Origin: a phage
Reading direction: 5' to 3' (one strand)
Sequence record: PZ445537.1
Length of the DNA stretch: 45,054 nucleotides
Below, piece by piece: positions 6,096 through 45,054 of this stretch (position 1 is its first letter; each line of letters starts with the position of its first letter). Position numbers and translations under genes: made by a program. The notes below the pieces were generated by a model, which was given only the letters and a program-made list of their open reading frames with translations, had not been told where the DNA came from and made no database searches.

Positions 6096-6527
6096 ATGTT
6101 TCTGAAAAAAGAGAAGTTCACCTGGCAAACAGAATCCCTGACCATCTTCGAGCTGTCGGCGCTGCAGCGTATTGAGTACATCACGTTTATGGCCGCAGAG
6201 GAAAAGGCCGTCAGCGCTGACAGCGACGGCATCAGCGATCAGGAAATGACGGCCAGGCTGATAGGCTCAAATATTCGCTGCGGTGCGCGTTTGATCGCGA
6301 TGTCTTTGTGGCATAACGATCCGGCTGGCACGGATGTGGAAACGCTTTATCAGCAGGTGCTTAGCGGCTGGCCGCCAGAGGCGATCGGTAAAGCAGAAAT
6401 GGAAATAAAGCTGCTCTCCGGCATGCTCGTTCCGGTTGAGGGTGACAACGCTGCCGATCCGGATGCCTCAGCGGAGGCCGAAAGCGCTGAACCCGTTACG
6501 GCGGAAAAGCCCTTGCCAGCGAGCTGA
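6096..6527 (+). CDS. G: tail assembly chaperone gpG
   Basis: 143 aa; MFLK start, LSALQRIE and AMSLWHN blocks match lambda gpG; acidic C-terminus. Confidence 0.9.
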   Translation: MFLKKEKFTWQTESLTIFELSALQRIEYITFMAAEEKAVSADSDGISDQEMTARLIGSNIRCGARLIAMSLWHNDPAGTDVETLYQQVLSGWPPEAIGKAEMEIKLLSGMLVPVEGDNAADPDASAEAESAEPVTAEKPLPAS

Positions 6528-19309: not shown

Positions 19310-20131
19310 AGCGCCACAGCCAACTTCGGAAGCCTCGAGATCGGAGCCAAAAAACCTTCTTCAGCAAGCTTTGTTGATTTCCATTTTCTTGGCACCAACG
19401 ACTATGACGCGCGCATCCTGTGTGGTGGTAATTCTAATGGTGCCATGGGGAAAGGGGACTTCACTTTTTACGCGGGGAAATACGTTTTTATCGGCGATAG
19501 CTTTGAGTTTCGCAACCCCATTACCTGTCAAAATAGCATCAGCGCATCTGCAAAAATAGCGACCACTGCTGATATGGAATGCAAAACTAAAATCGCTGTT
19601 TTGGCACCGGCTGACAATCAAAATGCCCATGTATGGTTCTATGGCACAGGTGGGGCATCCAGGGGGGTTATTTATTCCGGGCAAACAGGAATTATTCAGA
19701 TCCGTCCCGACAATAATGATAACGGCGGCTCCAACGGATACTCTTTTGCATTTGGGGCCGATGGTAAGTTTACCTGCGTCACGATGAACCAGACCTCAGA
19801 TGAGCGAGTAAAATTCGATAAAGAGCCCGTCAGTAACGCTCTGGAGAAGATTTGTTCCCTGACGGGTTATACGTTCGGCATTCAGCTCACAGAATCTGAG
19901 TCGGTACGTAGCGCAGGCATCATCGCACAGGAACTGGAGCAGGTTCTGCCGATCGCTGTGAGTTCTGGCGGCACCGGAACAACACCTGCAGGAGAGGAAA
20001 TTAACGATCTCAAAACCGTGGACTACAGCGCAATGAGCGCCCTCTACGTTGAGGCAATCAAGGAATTAACCAACCGGTTGAAAAGTGTTGAGAGCGAACT
20101 TACTGCAATACGTGACCGCTCAAACGCTTAG
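19301..20131 (+). CDS. silent tail fibre distal cassette B with C-terminal intramolecular chaperone (S74-like) domain
   Basis: 276 aa counted from TTG inside S4; no RBS or ATG; frame opens right at the crossover site; C-terminus has the self-cleaving chaperone signature (SDERVKFD...GIIAQELEQVLPIAV...VDYSAMSALYVEAIKEL). Confidence 0.7.
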   Translation: MGDSATANFGSLEIGAKKPSSASFVDFHFLGTNDYDARILCGGNSNGAMGKGDFTFYAGKYVFIGDSFEFRNPITCQNSISASAKIATTADMECKTKIAVLAPADNQNAHVWFYGTGGASRGVIYSGQTGIIQIRPDNNDNGGSNGYSFAFGADGKFTCVTMNQTSDERVKFDKEPVSNALEKICSLTGYTFGIQLTESESVRSAGIIAQELEQVLPIAVSSGGTGTTPAGEEINDLKTVDYSAMSALYVEAIKELTNRLKSVESELTAIRDRSNA

Positions 20132-21657: not shown

Positions 21658-22212
21658 ATGCAATATGGGTATGCAAGGGTATCAACTTTTGACCAAAATC
21701 TTGAATTACAGTTAGAGGCGCTAAATCGGTCAGAATGTGACCAGATATTTGAGGATAAAATATCCGGAGCGAAGTCAAAACGTCCTGGCCTGGATAAGAT
21801 GATGAAGTTATTGCGGCCAGGTGACACCGTCATCGTCTGGAAGCTAGACCGGCTCGGTCGATCACTCATACACCTCGTCGATTTACTGCGCTATTTCCGG
21901 GCTAATAATATTGAATTTGTCTCAATCACTGAGGGAATAAGGATCAGCACGTCAATCGGCAGATTCGCATACACAATGTTGAGTGCTGCGGCTGAGATGG
22001 AAAGAGAAAATATTATTGAAAGAACAAGGGCAGGTTTAGCCGTGGCAAGGGCAAAAGGGAGAATAGGTGGGAGGCGTCCAAAGTTAACACCAGAACAATG
22101 GGCGCAGGCTGGGAGATTAATATCAAACGGCGTGGATAGAAAACAGGTGGCAATAATTTATGATGTGGCTGTATGCACGCTTTATAAAAAATTTCCGGTG
22201 GGGCAGGCTTAA
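21658..22212 (+). CDS. serine recombinase, DNA invertase (Hin/Gin/Cin/Pin family)
   Basis: 184 aa; N-terminal catalytic motif YARVSTFDQ; RPGL…GDT-VVWKLDRLGRS block matches Hin as recalled; C-terminal HTH; sits just outside the invertible segment as gin/cin/pin do. Confidence 0.9.
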   Translation: MQYGYARVSTFDQNLELQLEALNRSECDQIFEDKISGAKSKRPGLDKMMKLLRPGDTVIVWKLDRLGRSLIHLVDLLRYFRANNIEFVSITEGIRISTSIGRFAYTMLSAAAEMERENIIERTRAGLAVARAKGRIGGRRPKLTPEQWAQAGRLISNGVDRKQVAIIYDVAVCTLYKKFPVGQA

Positions 22213-23464: not shown

Positions 23465-24652
23465 TCACCCGGCTTTAAAGACAATTTCAGCATGAGGAAC
23501 TTCTACCCATTCAACATGATTCTGGGTATAAATTTTTGTCGATTTTGCATCACTATGGGCCATCCTTGCCTGCGGATCGATACCTTGTCTTTCGAAAATA
23601 TGAGCCGCCAGCGCTCTAATCTCGTGGAAAGTTGGCCTTTCTTTGATAGGTAATTCTGCCGCTACACCTATCCGGTCCCGCAGCTCTGAAAATGCTCTGC
23701 TCAAATAATCAGGGGCCACCTGTGTTGGGTGGTTAACTTCCTTGCTTATAGGATTGCTTCTCTTTTCCAGAAGCCGGTGAACAACATAAGGACTGGCCAC
23801 ATTGTCTCTGCTGTTGTCGATGATCTCTTTCAGGGCCCTGCCGATCGGAATGGCAACGTGTGAGGCCTCTTTGTGCTGCACTTTTTGCCGATGAATGTAA
23901 AGCGTTCCGAATATTCCAGCCTCTTCCTGATCTAACCATACACATCCGCAAACCCCTTCTTTAGGTTCCTTGATCGAGTACCGGATCCGGGAAACTTCCA
24001 GGCGCGCTTGCGTAGTTTGTATTGCAAGGTCCATTGCAGTCTTCAGCCAAGGTTCAGCAGCTGCATGTATGGCCAGGAACTGCTCCAAAGTAAGTCGCCG
24101 GCGGACCTTTTTATCGACACGCCGCATTTTTTTCCGTGTTGCAGGATTATCCATCATTAGCGATTCATCCACAGCATAAGAGAATAGCTTTTTCAGGAAG
24201 CTAACTTTTCGGTTCTGAACATTGGCCGACGATTCAGAATGGTAATTTCGTATGTAGGCATTTACGTGCTCAAGCTCAATGTCACACGCGGGTATGTTAT
24301 TAAAAAATTCTTTAACCCTGATGGCATCATTATTCCAATCGTCAAGTGTGCTTTTAGACGGCTGCTCATCTTTGATCGCTCTCTCCATAATGCGATCAAC
24401 ATGTTCAGAAAACGGGTGGGCTTCACCATTAAGCCCTCCCGATTCCCGAATTAATGAATCTATCGATGGTGTGTTTTCAGGGCGCATCCTCAGGTTATAT
24501 TCTCGGGCGATGGCGATAGCCATTACTCGATCCGAACCGAGAGTTTTCTTTTTCCCAGTTATAAGCGTGAACTTATACACGCCACGATCTTTATCAAAAA
24601 AAAGATAATCAGGAAGGTGGCGGTATTCTTTTTTTCGTGGCCTTGCTGCCAT
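23465..24652 (-). CDS. int: tyrosine integrase (lambda Int family)
   Basis: 395 aa from ATG 24652 (RBS GAGGG; track start 24658 is TTG); C-terminal catalytic region HEIRALAAH…RMAHSDAKSTKIYT fits the R-H-R-Y pattern; adjacent to the attP core. Confidence 0.95.
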   Translation of the reverse strand: MAARPRKKEYRHLPDYLFFDKDRGVYKFTLITGKKKTLGSDRVMAIAIAREYNLRMRPENTPSIDSLIRESGGLNGEAHPFSEHVDRIMERAIKDEQPSKSTLDDWNNDAIRVKEFFNNIPACDIELEHVNAYIRNYHSESSANVQNRKVSFLKKLFSYAVDESLMMDNPATRKKMRRVDKKVRRRLTLEQFLAIHAAAEPWLKTAMDLAIQTTQARLEVSRIRYSIKEPKEGVCGCVWLDQEEAGIFGTLYIHRQKVQHKEASHVAIPIGRALKEIIDNSRDNVASPYVVHRLLEKRSNPISKEVNHPTQVAPDYLSRAFSELRDRIGVAAELPIKERPTFHEIRALAAHIFERQGIDPQARMAHSDAKSTKIYTQNHVEWVEVPHAEIVFKAG

Positions 24653-24654
24653 GG

Positions 24655-24864
24655 TCAACCCTCAATTATTAACTGACGTACCGCCTGATTAACAATTGAG
24701 TCAACTCCCCACTTTTCGGTTTCATAGACAAAAACTGAACCATCTACAATCCTTCCCATGAGTAATCCGTTTTCGACCCAACGTTTAATTGTACGGTTGT
24801 CAGGAATGGAGTCTTTAGTAAACTCGCGCTTACTCCAGAGACTCGCTTTCATTAGCTTTGCCAT
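24655..24864 (-). CDS. xis: excisionase-like protein
   Basis: 69 aa from ATG 24864 (RBS GAAGGA); TIKRWVENG…GSVFVYETE resembles the Xis DNA-binding fold; stop abuts the int start. Confidence 0.65.
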   Translation of the reverse strand: MAKLMKASLWSKREFTKDSIPDNRTIKRWVENGLLMGRIVDGSVFVYETEKWGVDSIVNQAVRQLIIEG

Positions 24865-24908
24865 GGTTTCCTTCTCCATAAAGCCCGGCTGCACCCGGGC
24901 TGAGTGGT

Positions 24909-25481
24909 TTACTCGTTGGTGCTGGTGGCAGGGATAAGTTTCTGCCAAATTGCTGACACATATTTTGCCTGATGGCGCGCATCAGCTAGGGCATTATGCA
25001 CATCGCCAATGAAAGGCATGTCACGCTTCGGATCGAAACCAACACTGCGACCGAGGGTAACAATCGTGCGAACATCATGATCGTTCCAAAATTCCCACGG
25101 GCAAATGCGTCCGGCGCGTTCGTAAGCTCCGCGCAGAATCACATTGTCAAAGGTGGCACCGTTACCCCAGACCTTCATGTATTTTGGGTTATCTGCGTGC
25201 CGGTGAATGAAATGGCTCAGTTCCGACAAAGCATCAGTGATAGGCAGCGCATCATCAACACAAATAGCTGAGCGCGCTTCCGGGCTTTGTTTTAGCCACC
25301 AAAGAATCGTGTCTCCATCCGGTACCGCGCCTTGATCCATTGCGCTTTCAAGCGAGACGGCCGTATAGAATTCTTGGCCAAGTTCACCTGTGTGAGGGTT
25401 AAAAAAGACGGCACCAATTGAGACGATTGGCGCGTTTGGTTTTTTGCCCATTGATTCAAGGTCGATCATTAAATTGTTCAT
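24909..25481 (-). CDS. DEDDh-type 3'-5' exonuclease (DnaQ-like fold)
   Basis: 190 aa; N-terminal Exo I motif MIDLESMGK…PIVSIGAV and C-terminal H-x4-D (HNALADARH). Confidence 0.65.
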   Translation of the reverse strand: MNNLMIDLESMGKKPNAPIVSIGAVFFNPHTGELGQEFYTAVSLESAMDQGAVPDGDTILWWLKQSPEARSAICVDDALPITDALSELSHFIHRHADNPKYMKVWGNGATFDNVILRGAYERAGRICPWEFWNDHDVRTIVTLGRSVGFDPKRDMPFIGDVHNALADARHQAKYVSAIWQKLIPATSTNE

Positions 25482-25493
25482 TATAAATATCCC

Positions 25494-26246
25494 TTATATT
25501 TCAAATGCCATTTGAGGCATGAAACGATCACGATCTGCGTCGTACTGCAATGAGCTGGCACTGTTGTATGCCTCTATGCGCTCAACCAGAACCGCTGCTC
25601 GTGTTTCTTTGCTTGCAGGCGCGTAGGCTGATTTATCCCATGCCTTGTCGATGCCAATATTGCGCGCCACGTTTGTACTGTCAGCTGACGACAGCGGGAT
25701 GTGACGGAATATATCGGCGTTAAGCATGCGCAGGCCATGAAGCTTTGTTATGGGGTAACCATTATTGTCGACAACATGCCGTATAAGATCTCGCAATTTT
25801 GCCCTGCATGAGCGTGGACGTTTCGCGTCGTATTCACCCATGCTACCGATGCATACCCTGGGGAATTCATGGCATAAGCGGATGAAACGCTCGTCAGGCT
25901 CGTTGAAGTGGTAAACTGGCGCGCCGACAACCTTACCGTGCGGCCATTCAGCTATTAACGCATCATTCTCTTCACTGGTCCCGCCGATCACGTCAGGGAT
26001 AACAGCAAAAGCAAAGCGCGGGTGATTCAACCAGCGGCCCACAAACTCGTAGTAATCATTCCAGTTAACAACGCGCTTTTTTGTCCAGAAGCTGAATGCG
26101 CCGTTATCCAGCGCAAAAGACTGGGTGACTTCGCTTGCAAGAGCTAATTGACCTGGATTAGCGAAGGAAATAAAAGCGTGCCTGCCTTTCCACGCCTTCA
26201 GTGCGCATGTATCAGGGGTTATTGGCCCGCCGTGAAAATGTATCAT
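25494..26246 (-). CDS. conserved hypothetical phage protein
   Basis: 250 aa from the ATG in ATGA overlap with the upstream TraR-like gene (track ORF extends to 26303); no motif recognised. Confidence 0.55.
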   Translation of the reverse strand: MIHFHGGPITPDTCALKAWKGRHAFISFANPGQLALASEVTQSFALDNGAFSFWTKKRVVNWNDYYEFVGRWLNHPRFAFAVIPDVIGGTSEENDALIAEWPHGKVVGAPVYHFNEPDERFIRLCHEFPRVCIGSMGEYDAKRPRSCRAKLRDLIRHVVDNNGYPITKLHGLRMLNADIFRHIPLSSADSTNVARNIGIDKAWDKSAYAPASKETRAAVLVERIEAYNSASSLQYDADRDRFMPQMAFEI

Positions 26247-31753: not shown

Positions 31754-32597
31754 ATTAACGGGTTACGTTTGGGACGCTTGTGCCGCTTCTGGCATGAAGC
31801 TGTCCAGCGTTGCCATCATGGCGCGTCTGGCTGACTTCAGCAGTGATGAAGGGGTTAGCTGGCCTTCCATTGCTACCATCGCGCGCCAGATTGGTGCTGG
31901 TGAGAGCACGGTTCGCACAGCCATATCACAGCTGGAAAAAGACGGTTGGTTAACCCGCCAGCAGCGCCGTAAAGGCAACCGAAATGCATCGAACGTTTAC
32001 CAGCTCAATGTTGCGAAATTGCAGGCTGCTGCCTTTTCTCACCTGTCAGATTCTGACGCATCAAAATCTGATGCCTCAAAAACCGACGCGTCAATATCTG
32101 AGGCATCAAAAAACGATGAGAAAGGCGGTTTTCACCCGTCAGAATCTGGGGGGGATCCGTCAGTAAATACAACTACTGATCCATCAGTTAAAAAACCTTC
32201 TTGTCCGGTTGCGCCGCAACCAGACCCTGAAGTGACGATCACCGATAACGCCATCCTGGTTCTGAATCATTTGAACCTGGTTAGCGGCTCACGATACCAA
32301 AAATCAAAAACTTCTCTGGAAAACATCCGTGCTCGTTTGCGTGAAGGTTACACCGTTGGCGACTTACAGCTGGTGATTGACCTTAAGCATGAGCACTGGA
32401 ATGGCAATGACGTGCAGTACCAGTACATGCGCCCTGAAACGCTATTTGGCCCGAAAAAGTTTGAGGGTTATCTGCAAAGCGGGATCCGTTGGGACAAGAA
32501 GGGGCGTCCACCGCGCGAAAGCTGGGGTGAAAAGAAACACGATCCGATGAAGTTCGGTCCGGTTGATACCAAGATTCCAGAGGGGTTCAGAGGATGA
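31743..32597 (+). CDS. replication initiation protein (O-like; N-terminal HTH, conserved phage C-terminal domain)
   Basis: 284 aa; N-terminal winged-HTH segment; serine/aspartate-rich linker encoded by tandem repeats; conserved C-terminal block (GYTVGDLQLVIDLKHEHWNGN). Confidence 0.7.
   Translation: MSTKLTGYVWDACAASGMKLSSVAIMARLADFSSDEGVSWPSIATIARQIGAGESTVRTAISQLEKDGWLTRQQRRKGNRNASNVYQLNVAKLQAAAFSHLSDSDASKSDASKTDASISEASKNDEKGGFHPSESGGDPSVNTTTDPSVKKPSCPVAPQPDPEVTITDNAILVLNHLNLVSGSRYQKSKTSLENIRARLREGYTVGDLQLVIDLKHEHWNGNDVQYQYMRPETLFGPKKFEGYLQSGIRWDKKGRPPRESWGEKKHDPMKFGPVDTKIPEGFRG
32052..32111 (+). repeat. four tandem 15-bp iteron-like repeats (putative origin) inside the initiator gene
   Basis: TCTGACGCATCAAAA / TCTGATGCCTCAAAA / CCGACGCGTCAATAT / TCTGAGGCATCAAAA, each with internal dyad TGA-GC-TCA; encode the SDASK-repeat linker, as lambda ori iterons do within O. 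Confidence 0.55.
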
Positions 32598-33928
32598 ATG
32601 AAAATAAATACTGCCGCGCGCTGGCTGAACTGCGTTCAAGACCAGCCCACGAGTTGAAAGAGGTCGGCGATCAATGGCGCACTCCGGATCTGTTGTTTTG
32701 GGGTATCAATGCGATGTTCGGCCCTCTGGTGTTGGACCTTTTTGCCGACGACAGCAACGCGAAGTGCCCAGCATGGTATACGGCTGAAGATAATGCCCTG
32801 ACGCAGGATTGGTCAGAGCGTCTGGCAGAACTCGGTGGTGCCGGGTTTGGCAACCCGCCTTACAGCCGCTCTCAGTACCACGACAAGCAGGCCGTCACCG
32901 GAATGACCCACATCATTAACCACGCTATGGCAATGCGAGAAAAGGGTGGTCGGTACGTTTTTCTCATTAAGTCTGCGACGAGTGAAACGTGGTGGCCGGA
33001 AGAGGCAGATCACGTCACATTCATCCGTGGCCGAATTGGTTTCGATCTTCCTACATGGTTCGTGCCGAAAGACGAAAAGCAGCAGCCCACCAGCGCATTT
33101 TTTGCTGGCGCTATCGTGGTCTTCGACAAAACATGGCGGGGTGAGCGTTTCAGTTACATCAACCGTACCGACCTGGAGGCCAAAGGCCGTGCTTCGATGT
33201 TGCTGGCCCAGTTTGCAGTGGGAAGAACGCAAACTGATGCGGCGCCGGAGCTTGATGCTGAGGTAGTGCCGGAGAAATTAGAGGCAGAACTGCCATTAAC
33301 CCAAAAAGCCATTCTGGAAACCAGTGGTGTTGAGGCTTGGGCCTGTGTTGTCGCGGCGTTCGGCGAGAAAGATGAGTACACCTTCAGCGAGTCAAAGTTT
33401 GGTCATACCTGGGCTGCCGACTCTTTGGAAGACCCTGAATTTACCAATGTTTCACCGCTGACGATCGACAGAGCGAAAAAGCTGATCAGCGAGAGCATCC
33501 TGGTGGGTGTTAATGCATGGCTGGAAACATTGCGCTTTGATAGCGATGACGTGAAACAAGACATATCAGAGCGGTTACGCACGGTTGCCGTTGAGTCTGC
33601 GAAAGAATACGGCATTAACCACAGTGAATTCATCGCGACCATGGAAAGCCTGGATAAAGCCAAATGGTCAAATATTCGGGGGATCCGCGCCCATGTCCGT
33701 GAGACGCAGGAATCAAAGGACAAGGCGTTAAACGAATCGCGCGTTTGGCCTCTTGAGGTTGGACTGGTGTTTAACCAGATTGAAGGGGCTGACGCTCTAC
33801 CTGTTTCACAGCAGAACAAGCTGAAAGCCAATATCAACCAGCTGTGGCTCGAACGTATGCCGACGAGTGAAATTATCACGACCGCTGGTGGTCTCTTCAA
33901 CAGCATGCAGGGGGCCGTCAATGCGTGA
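32594..33928 (+). CDS. DNA N6-adenine methyltransferase (phage Dam-type) with C-terminal extension
   Basis: 444 aa; catalytic motif GNPPYS (DPPY-type) in the N-terminal half; C-terminal ~230 aa of unknown function. Confidence 0.8.
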   Translation: MNENKYCRALAELRSRPAHELKEVGDQWRTPDLLFWGINAMFGPLVLDLFADDSNAKCPAWYTAEDNALTQDWSERLAELGGAGFGNPPYSRSQYHDKQAVTGMTHIINHAMAMREKGGRYVFLIKSATSETWWPEEADHVTFIRGRIGFDLPTWFVPKDEKQQPTSAFFAGAIVVFDKTWRGERFSYINRTDLEAKGRASMLLAQFAVGRTQTDAAPELDAEVVPEKLEAELPLTQKAILETSGVEAWACVVAAFGEKDEYTFSESKFGHTWAADSLEDPEFTNVSPLTIDRAKKLISESILVGVNAWLETLRFDSDDVKQDISERLRTVAVESAKEYGINHSEFIATMESLDKAKWSNIRGIRAHVRETQESKDKALNESRVWPLEVGLVFNQIEGADALPVSQQNKLKANINQLWLERMPTSEIITTAGGLFNSMQGAVNA

Positions 33929-35858
33929 AATTATCGTTGATAACTTTGCTGGTGGCGGCGGCGCGAGTACCGGCATTGAACTGGCGATCGGGCGTAGCGT
34001 GGATATCGCTATCAACCACGACGAAAACGCTATTGCTATGCATAAGACGAATCACCCTGACACGCTGCATTATTGCGAGTCGGTGTTTGACGTTGACCCA
34101 AGCGCAGCCACCAGCGGTAAACCTGTCGGCCTGGCCTGGTTTAGCCCTGACTGCCGCCACTTTTCCAAAGCGAAGGGCGCTAAGCCAGTTAAGAAAGAGA
34201 TCCGCGGGCTGGCGTGGATTGTCCTGCGCTGGGCGCTGGCAGTACGTCCCCGAGTCATGATGCTGGAGAACGTCGAAGAATTTAAGACATGGGGCCCGCT
34301 GCTCGATGAAGAATTACGCCCGGATCCTGAGCGTGCTGGTGAAACATTCGAGGCATTTGTCGGCATGCTGTCGACTGGTATCGCGGCGAATCACCCAGCA
34401 CTGGCTGAGGTTTGCGAATTTCTTGCCATTGAGCCGCACGGCCTGCAGGCGCAACAGCTGACCGCCGGGCTTGGCTATGAGGTCGATTATCGTGAGCTGC
34501 GCGCTTGTGACTACGGCGCGCCGACGATCAGAAAGCGTTTCTTCATGGTCATGCGCTGTGACGGCCGCAAGATTCATTGGCCTGAAGCGACTCATGGGGA
34601 TCCAAAATCACTGGAAGTACAAAGCGGCAAGCTGGCGCCATGGCGTACCGCGGCGGAGTGCATTGACTGGAATATCCCGGCCCGGTCCATCTTCGATCGC
34701 AAAAAGCCGCTGGCGGAAAATACGCTCAAACGTATCGCGCGCGGCATCCAGCGCTTTGTTATCGAAAGCGCATCACCTTTCATCGTGAAGTGTAACCACA
34801 CCACGACGAAAGGAGGTTATGACTGTTTCCGCGGGCAATCGTTGTTAGAGCCATTGCAGACCATCACTAAAAAGCATGGCTACGCGCTGGCGGTACCGCA
34901 TCTTACTAAATTCCGCACTGGGGCCACCGGGCAGCCAGTGACCGAGCCGGTTCCAACTGTCACCGCTGGTACGTCGGCGCGCCCTGGCGGGAATGGGCAT
35001 GCGCTTGGCGTAGTTGAGGCCGCCCTGACACCGTTCCTGGCTGGCAATGGCGGCAGTGAGTACCAGGCAAAGCCGCGCCCACTGGATAAACCCGCTCATA
35101 CAGTCCTCAAGCAGTCCCGCGCGTGCGTGGTTGCGCCGGTCATCGCCCGCCAGTTTGGTGCCAGTGTTGGGCACAGGGCTGACGAACCGAGCGCGACGAT
35201 TACTGCAGGTGGTGGCGGTAAGTCGCAGCTGGTAACTCCAACACTCATCCAGATGGGGTACGGCGAACGCCCAGGGCAAGAACCGCGTGTTCTTCAACTG
35301 AATAACCCGCTCGGCACGGTCACTGCTGGTGGTAATAAGTTTGCAACGGTGAGCGCGTTCCTGGCGAAGCACTATGGTGGGAATTACACGGGGCCGGGTG
35401 TTGGTATGGATGAGCCTGCCCACTCAGTCACTACTGTTGATCACCACGCGGTAGTTGCGTCGCACCTGGTGAAGCTGCGCGGAACCTGCCGCGACGGTCA
35501 GACCATGGACACACCTATGCCGACGATTACCGCTGGTGGCCAGCACGTTGGCGAGGTCCGGACATTCCTCGAAACCTACTGCGGTGATAGCGAGGATGAA
35601 TGGCTGGTGACGATCGAGGGGGTTAAGTACCAGATCGTCGATATCGGAATGCGCATGCTTCAACCGCATGAGCTTTATAAGGCGCAGGGCTTCCCTGACG
35701 GCTACGTTATCGATCAGGACTATCGCGGCAATCGTTACGCCAAAGACAAGCAGGTAGCGCGCTGCGGTAACGCAGTACCGCCGCCGTTCGCTCGTGCGCT
35801 GGTAGAAGCAAATCTTCCTGAATTATGTGTAAATCAAAAGGCGGGTGCAGCCGCCTGA
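33921..35858 (+). CDS. DNA cytosine-5 methyltransferase with long C-terminal domain
   Basis: 645 aa from ATG 33921 (overlaps the Dam stop); motif I FAGGGG, catalytic PC (SPDCRHFS), ENV (MLENVEEF); C-terminal half has repeated T(I/V)TAGG-like segments. Confidence 0.85.
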   Translation: MREIIVDNFAGGGGASTGIELAIGRSVDIAINHDENAIAMHKTNHPDTLHYCESVFDVDPSAATSGKPVGLAWFSPDCRHFSKAKGAKPVKKEIRGLAWIVLRWALAVRPRVMMLENVEEFKTWGPLLDEELRPDPERAGETFEAFVGMLSTGIAANHPALAEVCEFLAIEPHGLQAQQLTAGLGYEVDYRELRACDYGAPTIRKRFFMVMRCDGRKIHWPEATHGDPKSLEVQSGKLAPWRTAAECIDWNIPARSIFDRKKPLAENTLKRIARGIQRFVIESASPFIVKCNHTTTKGGYDCFRGQSLLEPLQTITKKHGYALAVPHLTKFRTGATGQPVTEPVPTVTAGTSARPGGNGHALGVVEAALTPFLAGNGGSEYQAKPRPLDKPAHTVLKQSRACVVAPVIARQFGASVGHRADEPSATITAGGGGKSQLVTPTLIQMGYGERPGQEPRVLQLNNPLGTVTAGGNKFATVSAFLAKHYGGNYTGPGVGMDEPAHSVTTVDHHAVVASHLVKLRGTCRDGQTMDTPMPTITAGGQHVGEVRTFLETYCGDSEDEWLVTIEGVKYQIVDIGMRMLQPHELYKAQGFPDGYVIDQDYRGNRYAKDKQVARCGNAVPPPFARALVEANLPELCVNQKAGAAA

Positions 35859-39760: not shown

Positions 39761-40813
39761 ATGAAAAATACTGTAAATATAAACAGTGTTGAGCTTGTCA
39801 ACGCTGACTGCCTGCTATACCTCGCAACCCTCCCAGATAACACCATTGACCTTATTGTTACGGATCCGCCGTACTTCAAAGTGAAACCCAACGGCTGGGA
39901 CAATCAATGGAAAGGGGATGAGGATTATCTTCGCTGGCTTGATATGTGCCTCGCACAATTCTGGCGAGTGCTAAAACCTGCTGGCAGTCTTTATCTTTTC
40001 TCCGGTCACCGCCTGGCGGCAGACATTGAGATCATGATGCGTGAGCGGTTCAACGTCCTGAACCACATCATCTGGGCTAAACCGTCGGGCCGCTGGAATG
40101 GCTGTAATAAAGAGAGCCTGCGCTCTTACTTCCCTGCAACAGAGCGCATCCTCTTCGCTGAGCATTACCAGGGGCCGTATAAACCAAAGAGCGACGGTTA
40201 CGCGGAGAAGGGAAGCGAGCTGAAGCAGCATGTAATGACTCCCCTAATTTCTTATTTTCGGGATGCACGTGAAGCGCTTGGCATATCCTCAAAACAAATA
40301 GCCGATGCGACTGGAAAGAAGAACATGGTGTCTCACTGGTTCAGCGGTAGCCAGTGGCAATTACCGAATGAATCAGATTACCGGAAGCTTCAGTCCCTTT
40401 TCACGCAGGTAGCCATCGAAAAGCACCAGAACGGCGAACTGGCAACACCACACCACCAGCTGGTGGCTATGTGGCATTCGTTGAATCGCAAGTATTCAGA
40501 GCTGCTCGAAGAGTACAAATCACTTCGGCGGCATTTCTCTGTTTCCGTATCCGTTCCTTATACCGACGTCTGGACACATAAACCCGTTCAGTTTTATCCA
40601 GGTAAACACCCATGCGAAAAACCCGCTGACATGTTGCGGCAGATCATCAACGCCAGCAGTAAGCCTGGTGATGTGGTGGCTGATTTCTTTATGGGGTCCG
40701 GTTCGACCGTGAAAGTCGCGCTGGAACTTGGCCGCCAGGCTATTGGCGTTGAACTCGAAGAGGAAAGGTTTAATCAGACGATGGGGGAAATACGGGCGTT
40801 GGCAGGGGAATAA
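39761..40813 (+). CDS. DNA methyltransferase (N6-adenine/N4-cytosine, beta class)
   Basis: 350 aa; catalytic motif VTDPPYF near the N-terminus and AdoMet motif FFMGSGST near the C-terminus. Confidence 0.85.
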   Translation: MKNTVNINSVELVNADCLLYLATLPDNTIDLIVTDPPYFKVKPNGWDNQWKGDEDYLRWLDMCLAQFWRVLKPAGSLYLFSGHRLAADIEIMMRERFNVLNHIIWAKPSGRWNGCNKESLRSYFPATERILFAEHYQGPYKPKSDGYAEKGSELKQHVMTPLISYFRDAREALGISSKQIADATGKKNMVSHWFSGSQWQLPNESDYRKLQSLFTQVAIEKHQNGELATPHHQLVAMWHSLNRKYSELLEEYKSLRRHFSVSVSVPYTDVWTHKPVQFYPGKHPCEKPADMLRQIINASSKPGDVVADFFMGSGSTVKVALELGRQAIGVELEEERFNQTMGEIRALAGE

Positions 40814-42253: not shown

Positions 42254-42337
42254 TGCAGCATTCATCGAAAAAGCACATCAAATGCTATCGGTAATCATTA
42301 TCATTTGATGGGTCCTCCCGGCGGGGTGGCCTACCAC

Positions 42338-42353
42338 GGGGCGGCGCCGCGGG
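42338..42353. other. candidate cos (cohesive-end) site
   Basis: GGGGCGGCGCCGCGGG then AAACGGCTAGTTTTTCG, resembling the lambda left end as recalled; contains the 10-bp palindrome GCGGCGCCGC; ~110 bp upstream of the small terminase gene. Confidence 0.35.
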
Positions 42354-42452
42354 AAACGGCTAGTTTTTCGAATCCAGGGTCATCATCATCATGTGCGCAG
42401 GTCTTTGATTTAATTAGAGGCCATTTTCGCAAGATGTCGAATCGTTCAAAAA

Positions 42453-42953
42453 GTGTTCACCATCATGGACCAGGAAATTGCCACTTTAAAACTCAATATC
42501 AACCAGCTGGCAGGGATAACCGGCGTACACCGTCAGACGGTTGCCGCGAGACTGAAAAATGTTGAACCTGCTCCAGGCAGCAACAGCAAGTTAAAGCTCT
42601 ATCTTGTGACCGAAATTCTGACCGAACTGATGATCCCTACCGTTTCGGCCAACATCGATGATATGCCCCCCTCTGACAGGCTGTCCCACTGGAAAGCAGA
42701 GAATGAGAGGCTGAAGTTCGAACAGGATACGGGGCAGTTAATACCCGCAGATGAAGTGGCGCGAGAATTCTCATTGATGGCGAAAGCCGTCGTCATGGTA
42801 CTTGAAACCCTCCCGGATGTGCTCGAGCGCGACTGTGCTTTAACGCCTGCTGCGGTAGTTCGTGTGCAAAGCGTTATTGATGATCTGCGCGACCAGATGG
42901 CGGAGAGGGTGCAGGACGCTGAAAAAGAGGAGGAAGAGCCTGAGGAGGACTGA
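42453..42953 (+). CDS. terminase small subunit (Nu1-like, N-terminal HTH)
   Basis: 166 aa (ATG 42465 is an alternative start); N-terminus MDQEIATLKLNINQLAGITGVHRQTVAARL resembles the Nu1 winged-HTH; acidic C-terminus; stop overlaps the large-subunit start (TGATG). Confidence 0.7.
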   Translation: MFTIMDQEIATLKLNINQLAGITGVHRQTVAARLKNVEPAPGSNSKLKLYLVTEILTELMIPTVSANIDDMPPSDRLSHWKAENERLKFEQDTGQLIPADEVAREFSLMAKAVVMVLETLPDVLERDCALTPAAVVRVQSVIDDLRDQMAERVQDAEKEEEEPEED

Positions 42954-45054
42954 TGGCAAAGCGGGCATCCGCCAGGGACATCCGCCGCGATGTCTCCGGT
43001 ATTTTACGAGCCCCGCGTCGTATGCCGGTGGCCGATGCGGTCAGTACTTATATGCGCGTGCCAATGGGGGCGGGAAACTCAGTTCCATGGGATCCGGATC
43101 TGGCACCCTATGTGATTGAGCCGATGAACTGCCTGGCATCGCGTGAATACGATGCGGTGGTGTTTGTGGGCCCAGCGCGAACGGGTAAAACCATCGGGCT
43201 GATTGACGGCTGGATTGTTTATAACATTGTCTGCGATCCGGCAGATATGCTTGTGATTCAGGTATCTGAGGAAAAAGCTCGCGAGCATTCCAAAAAACGC
43301 CTGGACCGTACTTTTCGCTGTAGCCCTGAAGTTAAAACCCGGCTAAGCCCAAGACGTAACGATAACAACGTCTACGACCGTACATTCCGCGCCGGTAACT
43401 ATCTGAAGCTTGGCTGGCCATCCGTCAATATCATGTCGTCCTCGGACTATAAGAGTGTGGCGCTGACGGATTATGACCGCTTTCCGGAAGATATCGACGG
43501 GGAGGGGGATGCTTTTTCACTGGCATCGAAGCGTACCACGACATTCATGTCCTCCGGGATGACGCTGGTTGAAAGCTCGCCCGGGAGGGATATCAGAGAC
43601 ACAAAATGGCGGCGTTCCACGCCCCATGAAGCCCCTCCGACCACCGGAATTTTATCGCTCTATAACCGTGGTGACCGCCGTCGTCTTTACTGGCCATGCC
43701 CGCATTGCGGCGAATATTTCCAGCCGGAAATGGACAATATGACCGGGTACCGCGACAGCAGCGATCCTGTGCTTGCCAGCGAAGCGGCTTTTCTACAGTG
43801 CCCGGCCTGTAAAGGCAGGATCACACCGGACATGAAGCGTGCGCTTAACATGAAATGTGTCTGGCTCCGGGACGGGCAAACCATCGACAGGAAAGGCCAG
43901 GTTAGCGGTGATGGCCGTCGTTCCCGTATTGCCTCCTTCTGGATGGAAGGTCCGGCAGCTGCTTACCAGACCTGGGCGCAGCTTATTTATAAGTTCCTGA
44001 CCGCCGAGCAGGAATATGAATCCACGCGCAGCGAAGAAACCCTGAAGACGGTGATCAACACCGATTTCGGCAGGCCCTATTTGCCGCGGGCCAGCATGGA
44101 GCAGCGTAAAAGTGAATTGCTCGAGCAGCGTGCCGAAGAAGTCCCAAAACGTTCGGTACCCGATGGCGTGCAGTTTCTCACTGCGACCGTGGACGTGCAG
44201 GCCGGGCGCAACCGGCGCTTTGTTGTGCAGATTACGGGTTATGGAAGTATGGGTGAGCGCTGGATAGTTGACCGTTACAACATCCGGCATTCGCTGCGCT
44301 GCGACGGCAACGGGGAAAGCATTCAGGTGGATCCGGCGAGCTATCCGGAGGACTGGGATCTTTTACTCACCGACGTCTTTGATAAAACGTGGCCACTCGC
44401 AACTGACCCGTCAAAGGGCATGCGGCTGATGTCGATGGCCGTGGACTCAGGGGGTGAAGATGGCGTGACGGATAATGCCTACAAATTCTGGCGCAGATGT
44501 CGCCGTGAGGGGCTGGGTAAGCGTATCTATCTCTTCAAGGGGGACAGCGTCAGGCGCAGCAAACTTATCCAGCGAACGTTTCCCGACAACACGGGCAGAT
44601 CAACGCGCCGCGCACAGGCGACGGGTGATGTGCCTCTTTATCTTCTCCAGACCGATGCCCTTAAAGACCGGGTGAATAATGCGCTGTGGCGTGATTCACC
44701 CGGCCCTGGCTATGTGCATTTCCCCGCCTGGCTGGGCAGCTGGTTCTATGACGAACTGACGTATGAGGAACGCTCGAATGAAGGGAAATGGAGTAAGCCC
44801 GGCCGGGGCGCAAACGAAGCATTTGACCTGCTCGTTTATGCCGACGCGCTCGCCATCCTTAGTGGTTACGAAAAAATCAAATGGCCGTCAGCTCCTGAGT
44901 GGGCACGGCGGGAAACGTGGATCGAGGACACGCAGACGGAAACTGGCGAAATGCCATCCCCGCCGCCTGCGCCGAAATCTAAATCAAAACCAAAACGTGA
45001 GAAGCCCGTAACCGAGCAGGCTAATCCGTGGTCTTCGTCAGGAGGTTGGGTGTG
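42953..45054 (+). CDS. terminase large subunit (lambda gpA family), open at window end
   Basis: Frame open for 700 codons from ATG 42953 to the last base; absent from the ORF track because it has no stop in the window; Walker A VFVGPARTGKT; the final TG plus window base 1 (A) would give TGA. Confidence 0.9.
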   Translation, partial: MAKRASARDIRRDVSGILRAPRRMPVADAVSTYMRVPMGAGNSVPWDPDLAPYVIEPMNCLASREYDAVVFVGPARTGKTIGLIDGWIVYNIVCDPADMLVIQVSEEKAREHSKKRLDRTFRCSPEVKTRLSPRRNDNNVYDRTFRAGNYLKLGWPSVNIMSSSDYKSVALTDYDRFPEDIDGEGDAFSLASKRTTTFMSSGMTLVESSPGRDIRDTKWRRSTPHEAPPTTGILSLYNRGDRRRLYWPCPHCGEYFQPEMDNMTGYRDSSDPVLASEAAFLQCPACKGRITPDMKRALNMKCVWLRDGQTIDRKGQVSGDGRRSRIASFWMEGPAAAYQTWAQLIYKFLTAEQEYESTRSEETLKTVINTDFGRPYLPRASMEQRKSELLEQRAEEVPKRSVPDGVQFLTATVDVQAGRNRRFVVQITGYGSMGERWIVDRYNIRHSLRCDGNGESIQVDPASYPEDWDLLLTDVFDKTWPLATDPSKGMRLMSMAVDSGGEDGVTDNAYKFWRRCRREGLGKRIYLFKGDSVRRSKLIQRTFPDNTGRSTRRAQATGDVPLYLLQTDALKDRVNNALWRDSPGPGYVHFPAWLGSWFYDELTYEERSNEGKWSKPGRGANEAFDLLVYADALAILSGYEKIKWPSAPEWARRETWIEDTQTETGEMPSPPPAPKSKSKPKREKPVTEQANPWSSSGGWV

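Follow-up and report, generated by a model that had tools for sequence, protein, structure and literature searches.

The region 42310-42464 of the window, the whole 45,054-nt stretch of DNA analysed here, is very probably the lambda-type packaging cut site (cos), already described, of a known phage of E. coli. Homology and conservation support the cos assignment well. The site contains a 9-nt cohesive-end segment where its relatives have 12 nt. In the account that we consider probable, the region is a lambdoid cos in a packaging module of the mEp213/LLS/Gifsy type, and the 9-nt form is an error of consensus or assembly.

Identity of the window

The window was identified by megablast as the complete, circularly permuted genome of Escherichia phage Eeyore (PP925821.1, 45,057 bp). 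PP925821.1 was rotated to begin at base 25614 and compared with the window base by base. The sole difference across 45 kb was the absence of GCT after window position 42347, PP925821.1 reading CCACG GGGCGGCGCGCT CGCGGG and the window CCACG GGGCGGCGC CGCGGG. The same 9-nt form (GGGCGGCGC/CGCGGG, the slash marking the predicted nick) is present in the deposited sequence of Flotzy (PP925827.1, record ~6170-6200), a different phage from Eeyore's submitter batch with ~96% identity to Eeyore. No papers on Eeyore or Flotzy were found in the literature collection searched.

Two further genes of the window were noted. A DNA invertase gene at ~21658-22212 (Eeyore 2214-2768) lies between oppositely oriented tail-fibre genes, an arrangement that suggests a host-range switch by inversion; such a switch has been noted for LLS (PMC12315714). 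The product of 25494-26246 (- strand) is annotated in GenBank as queuine tRNA-ribosyltransferase, a putative annotation with no Pfam match at E <= 0.001.

The cos region

Features of the region are listed in Table 1. With slashes at the nicks, which in the window are predicted, lambda (NC_001416) aligns as GGGTCCT-N23-/GGGCGGCGACCT/CGCGGGTTTTCGCTA and the window as GGGTCCT-N22-/GGGCGGCGC/CGCGGGAAACGGCTA, with a three-base gap before the second slash.

Table 1. Coordinates of the cos region and terminase genes in the window.
Feature	Position	Strand	Remarks
cosQ-like heptamer GGGTCCT	42310..42316	+	Single occurrence in the window; packaging-termination role by analogy with lambda
cosQ-cosN spacer	42317..42338	+	Ends in CCACG (42334-42338), invariant in 28 aligned relatives
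Cohesive-end segment GGGCGGCGC	42339..42347	+	9 of the 12 nt of the relatives (GGGCGGCGCGCT); nt 10-12 (GCT) absent
10-bp palindrome GCGGCGCCGC	42341..42350	.	Perfect, GC-only, inside cosN; incidental product of the 3-nt gap
cosN right flank CGCGGGAAACGGCT	42348..42361	+	Invariant in all 28 aligned relatives; CGCGGG common to lambda
Presumed cosB (small terminase binding region)	42362..42464	+	Between cosN and terS; assigned by position only
GTCATCATCATCATGTG, (CAT)4 block	42379..42395	+	Candidate R3-like small terminase binding site, proposed from position
terS, small terminase subunit, 162 aa	42465..42953	+	Pfam DUF1441 3.6e-41; PHROG 141 'terminase small subunit' 1.6e-67
terL, gpA-family large terminase	42953..45054	+	Stop codon completed by window base 1

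Upstream of cosN the conserved 7-bp cosQ is present as GGGTCCT, and the role of this heptamer as the packaging-termination signal is taken from lambda (PMC4669245). Its distance to the predicted top-strand nick is 22 bp in the window versus 23 bp in lambda. In the alignment the heptamer was kept in relatives from E. coli, Enterobacter and Kluyvera. AGGTACT replaces it in the Nissle 1917 prophage and in prophages of Proteus, Providencia, Morganella and Xenorhabdus; published work describes cosQ as free of natural variation. A short conserved inverted repeat, YCCC-N3-GGGR, lies in the cosQ-cosN spacer.

The top-strand nick (N1) is predicted between 42338 and 42339. The record of LLS (PQ299149) begins exactly at GGGCGGCGCGCT, with a misc_feature describing a 5' extended single-strand cohesive site, and its right end (...CCTGCCACG) aligns with ...CCTACCACG of the window, stopping at 42338. 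Nucleotides 1-8 of the overhang, GGGCGGCG, are identical in the window and lambda, and comparison with NC_001416 showed the lambda-like left half of the overhang together with both CG nick flanks (ACG/ on the left, /CGCGGG on the right). The bottom-strand nick (N2) is predicted directly to the left of CGCGGGAAACGGCT in the intact site. No terminator-like or promoter-like site was found at the cos region, and a role of this kind was dropped.

A sequence-only reading had proposed a candidate cos at 42311-42360 and quoted GGGGCGGCGCCGCGGGAAACGGCTAGTTTTTCG in its support. This 33-mer is present, at 42338-42370; the range was shifted to the left, losing the last 10 bases of GGGGCGGCGCCGCGGGAAACGGCTAGTTTTTCG and taking in 6 of the 7 bases of GGGTCCT, which the reading left unmentioned. 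The resemblance to lambda holds against NC_001416 in cosQ, in overhang nt 1-8 and in both CG flanks. The central proposal, that a lambda-like cos lies shortly before the small terminase gene, is supported by cosQ, overhang nt 1-8, the cosN flanks, the terminase families, conservation and the LLS record.

Length of the cohesive-end segment in relatives

The search pattern held the flanks constant, left the bases between them open and allowed a total segment of 8-16 nt. In ~190 homologous sites the segment was always 12 nt, the only exceptions, with the 9-nt form, being the window and Flotzy. The GenBank record of Eeyore, LLS, mEp043 and mEp213 all have 12 nt. A shorter pattern run against genome contigs gave 57 matches, from which ~35 chance matches in GC-rich genomes lacking cos context were excluded. 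Among GTDB species genomes, all matches with true cos context had 12 nt (~20 prophages, in Kluyvera, Enterobacter, Ewingella, Kosakonia, Phytobacter, Proteus, Providencia, Morganella and Xenorhabdus).

The site is carried by 33 complete E. coli genomes; of the 30 matches listed, 29 exceeded the query by 3-4 bases. Five genomes, one per match class and standing for the 33, were sampled, and the 12-mer was found in all five; they included E. coli H38, whose match was 1 base longer than the query. In IMG/VR and metagenome contigs 12 nt were found in 133 of 133 distinct contexts. GGGCGGCG was invariant in these contexts, and nt 9-12 varied (CGCT, GCAT, GCTT, CGCA, CACT and others).

Lambda-like phages were defined by Feiss et al. 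by their 12-base 5' extensions, with natural variation at nt 7-12 and conservation of cosQ, the left half and the CG nick flanks (PMC4669245). Variation in the present relatives was limited to nt 9-12, in line with that rule. The block that runs from cosQ through the cosN right flank did not vary between genera in the alignment, unlike the diverging intergenic DNA beside it, and in the relatives this block always lies directly upstream of terS.

A prophage of Serratia rubidaea NCTC12971 (4930-4953) reads GAG/GGGGCGGCGACA/CGCGGG, with an extra G and the left flank CCGAG in place of CCACG. It showed a 3-nt gap in the shorter pattern but was rejected as such a case; counted from the CGCGGG flank, it contains the 12-mer GGGGCGGCGACA.

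Origin of the three-base difference

Between the conserved CG nick flanks the window has 9 bp rather than 12, which most probably reflects a sequence error. We consider it quite likely that the missing GCT is a consensus error at the physical ends of the DNA. The two versions differ only inside the predicted overhang and the length is invariant in ~190 relatives, which together point to an error of the consensus at the ends. An ambiguous end consensus also fits better than evolution with a single difference, inside the overhang, between two versions of the same genome. An error sitting exactly at the physical ends of virion DNA would thus not be a biological feature.

Across a joined cos the 12-nt version reads GGGCGGCGCGCTCGCGGG and the 9-nt version GGGCGGCGCCGCGGG. 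Turner, Chlobot and Kati, lambda-type phages of the same submitter batch, have the intact 12-mer GGGCGGCGACCT. A general pipeline fault at cos in this batch was rejected on these grounds, and the loss of GCT therefore appears specific to this sequence context. The lost GCT falls within a run of CG dinucleotides. The Flotzy record probably needs the same correction, or experimental check, as the window.

Three methyltransferase genes were noted in the window. A 645-aa C5-cytosine methylase (PF00145) is encoded at 33921-35855, and at 32594-33925 a 444-aa protein that carries the annotation PAPS reductase but begins with a Dam-type N6-adenine methylase (PF05869). A 350-aa methylase is encoded at 39761-40813, just upstream of the lysis genes. 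It is a speculative suggestion that DNA modification by the three enzymes may contribute to context-specific base-calling errors.

Presumed cosB and the terminase genes

The presumed cosB (42362-42464) is nearly identical among relatives of the E. coli group in the alignment. No R-type repeats of at least 8 bp and no exact IHF consensus were found in it; the window has a single exact IHF consensus, at 20056, well away from cos. The block GTCATCATCATCATGTG, which corresponds to LLS bp 44-60, is a candidate small terminase binding site, and a CAnCAnCA pattern is kept at its position in divergent relatives. Its position is equivalent to that of lambda R3 (bp 50-65; PMC9026076).

Both the Eeyore and the LLS record call the terS product a terminase small subunit, and it gave a weak HTH match at aa 10-34. 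BLASTP found no similarity between it and lambda Nu1, and direct similarity was dropped. The two are connected by PHROG profiles alone, terS cross-matching the Nu1 family phrog_57 at 2e-11 and Nu1 matching phrog_141 at 5.6e-8; by these profiles terS is probably a remote relative of Nu1.

Coordinates of terL were mapped from Eeyore CDS 23512-25614; the two ends of the window divide its stop codon. TerL matched both GpA_ATPase (PF05876, 1.6e-73) and GpA_nuclease (PF20454, 1.5e-83), and is of the gpA (5'-cos) type. BLASTP against lambda gpA gave 24% identity over 624 aligned columns (E = 1e-17). No solved structures for the small and large terminases were matched by sequence.

From the start of the overhang, terS begins at bp 127 in the window, at bp 130 in relatives and at bp 191 in lambda. 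The distance of "about 110 bp" to the small terminase gene in the sequence-only reading was a fair estimate, the ATG at 42465 lying 126 bp past the start of the overhang and 105 bp past the end of the range proposed there. That the spacing is "as in lambda" applies to the arrangement, which is similar; the window is more compact (lambda Nu1 starts at bp 191).

Proposed packaging cut

By homology with lambda we infer the nick positions, the polarity of the overhang and the roles of cosQ and cosB. TerS would bind cosB just to the right of cosN on concatemeric DNA and would position the gpA-family terL, which would nick the top strand at 42338/42339 (CCACG/GGGC). The bottom strand would be nicked 12 bp to the right (...GCT/CGCGGG in the intact sequence), and strand separation would leave 12-nt 5' overhangs, GGGCGGCGCGCT. 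Packaging would then run rightward through terS and terL and end at the next cos, with cosQ helping.

Comparison with known phages

The window shares with mEp213 and LLS the same site, the same cosQ heptamer, near-identical flanks (few substitutions; also in mEp043) and terminases of the same families at the same distance from cosN. Unlike these phages, it is without nt 10-12 (GCT) of the 12-mer. The overhang of LLS was deduced from the type of its large terminase and from a putative mEp213 cos, the latter by Vahanian et al. (2017) as cited in PMC12315714. The LLS Nanopore assemblies showed no DNA ends around cos, and a PCR product across cos completed the sequence (PMC12315714). The ends of this phage group, the overhangs of LLS and mEp213 among them, have been assigned by homology rather than mapped (PMC12315714).

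With lambda the window shares a GGGTCCT cosQ ~22-23 bp to the left of N1, GGGCGGCG, the flanks ACG/ and /CGCGGG, the order cos, terS, terL and a large terminase of the gpA family. The intact relatives have CG at overhang nt 9-10 where lambda has AC. The window further differs from lambda in that terS starts at ~bp 127-130 versus bp 191, in that its presumed cosB yielded neither an IHF consensus nor R3/R2/R1 repeats, and in that terS is of the DUF1441/phrog_141 type, related to Nu1 only at the profile level, with terL only 24% identical to gpA.

N15 has a simple cos with a single R3, without an IHF site and with terS starting at bp 89 (PMC4669245, PMC9026076). A compact cosB with no obvious IHF site, and an overhang that departs from lambda in the right half only, are common to N15 and the window. 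The two differ in R3, whose sequences are unrelated, and the window showed no accessory rR2 site. The N15 large terminase is 65% identical to that of lambda (PMC4669245), as against 24% for the window's.

Alternative explanations

The 9-nt cosN might be real in Eeyore, as in the window version, and in Flotzy: a 3-bp deletion in a viable phage, whose gpA-type terminase would make 9-nt 5' overhangs (GGGCGGCGC) or nick at shifted positions. We consider this unlikely. The form does occur in two deposited or derived sequences of two phages of ~96% identity, and the intact lambda-type phages of the batch count against a blanket pipeline fault. In lambda, moreover, the nuclease centres of the large terminase have no high sequence specificity and are placed mainly by the small terminase on cosB (PMC9026076), and changes in the right half of cosN are tolerated well (PMC4669245). 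Against these points, none of the ~190 independent homologous sites deviated from 12 nt in a search open to 8-16 nt. PP925821.1, from the very phage in question, has the 12-mer and matches the window everywhere else over 45 kb, and removal of 3 bp shifts the conserved CG nick flanks by ~1/3 helical turn relative to each other. That the site is a relic or no packaging site at all, the phage packaging by headful (pac) or being cut elsewhere and the GC-rich block having another role or none, is very improbable. The ends of the phage group have never been mapped (PMC12315714), terS is without BLASTP similarity to Nu1, and neither R repeats nor an IHF site were found, all of which would suit such a reading. 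It is opposed by terL, a gpA-type (5'-cos) protein in which each of the two domains is matched at E < 1e-70, and by a block from cosQ to the cosN flank that stays invariant across genera where the surrounding intergenic DNA is free to diverge. The block is always directly upstream of terS, and no terminator or promoter is present.

The sequence-only reading also drew attention to a perfect palindrome, and GCGGCGCCGC is indeed there. It exists only because GCT is missing after 42347: it was found in the window and Flotzy and was absent from all relatives, the GenBank record of Eeyore included. Perfect 10-bp palindromes numbered 47 in the window versus 49 ± 6 expected from first-order Markov simulations, and GGGCGGCG occurred twice versus ~3 times expected. 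At such chance levels neither motif is significant alone; only the extended context is. Being perfect, GC-only and within cosN, GCGGCGCCGC could be imagined as a symmetric site recognised by a terminase dimer, a restriction protein or a regulator. This is hardly credible for a palindrome of a length class at chance frequency that is missing from every relative with an intact 12-mer and whose centre (42345/42346) is off the midpoint between the conserved nick flanks. The palindrome was rejected as a signal; it is incidental and without a role.

Implications

A cos site of this phage group, on the lambda plan, had already been proposed for mEp213 and LLS, and little biology is added here. The practical value lies in annotation and quality control: the site gives the proper starting point for the Eeyore and Flotzy genomes, and a probable 3-nt error is flagged in the cohesive-end sequence of the window copy and of the Flotzy record. 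Over ~190 sites, nt 9-12 drift in sequence but the length stays at 12 nt. Were the 9-nt form genuine, the 12-bp stagger would not be a fixed property of the gpA-family enzyme, and only in that case would the site bear on how gpA-type terminases set the spacing of their nicks.
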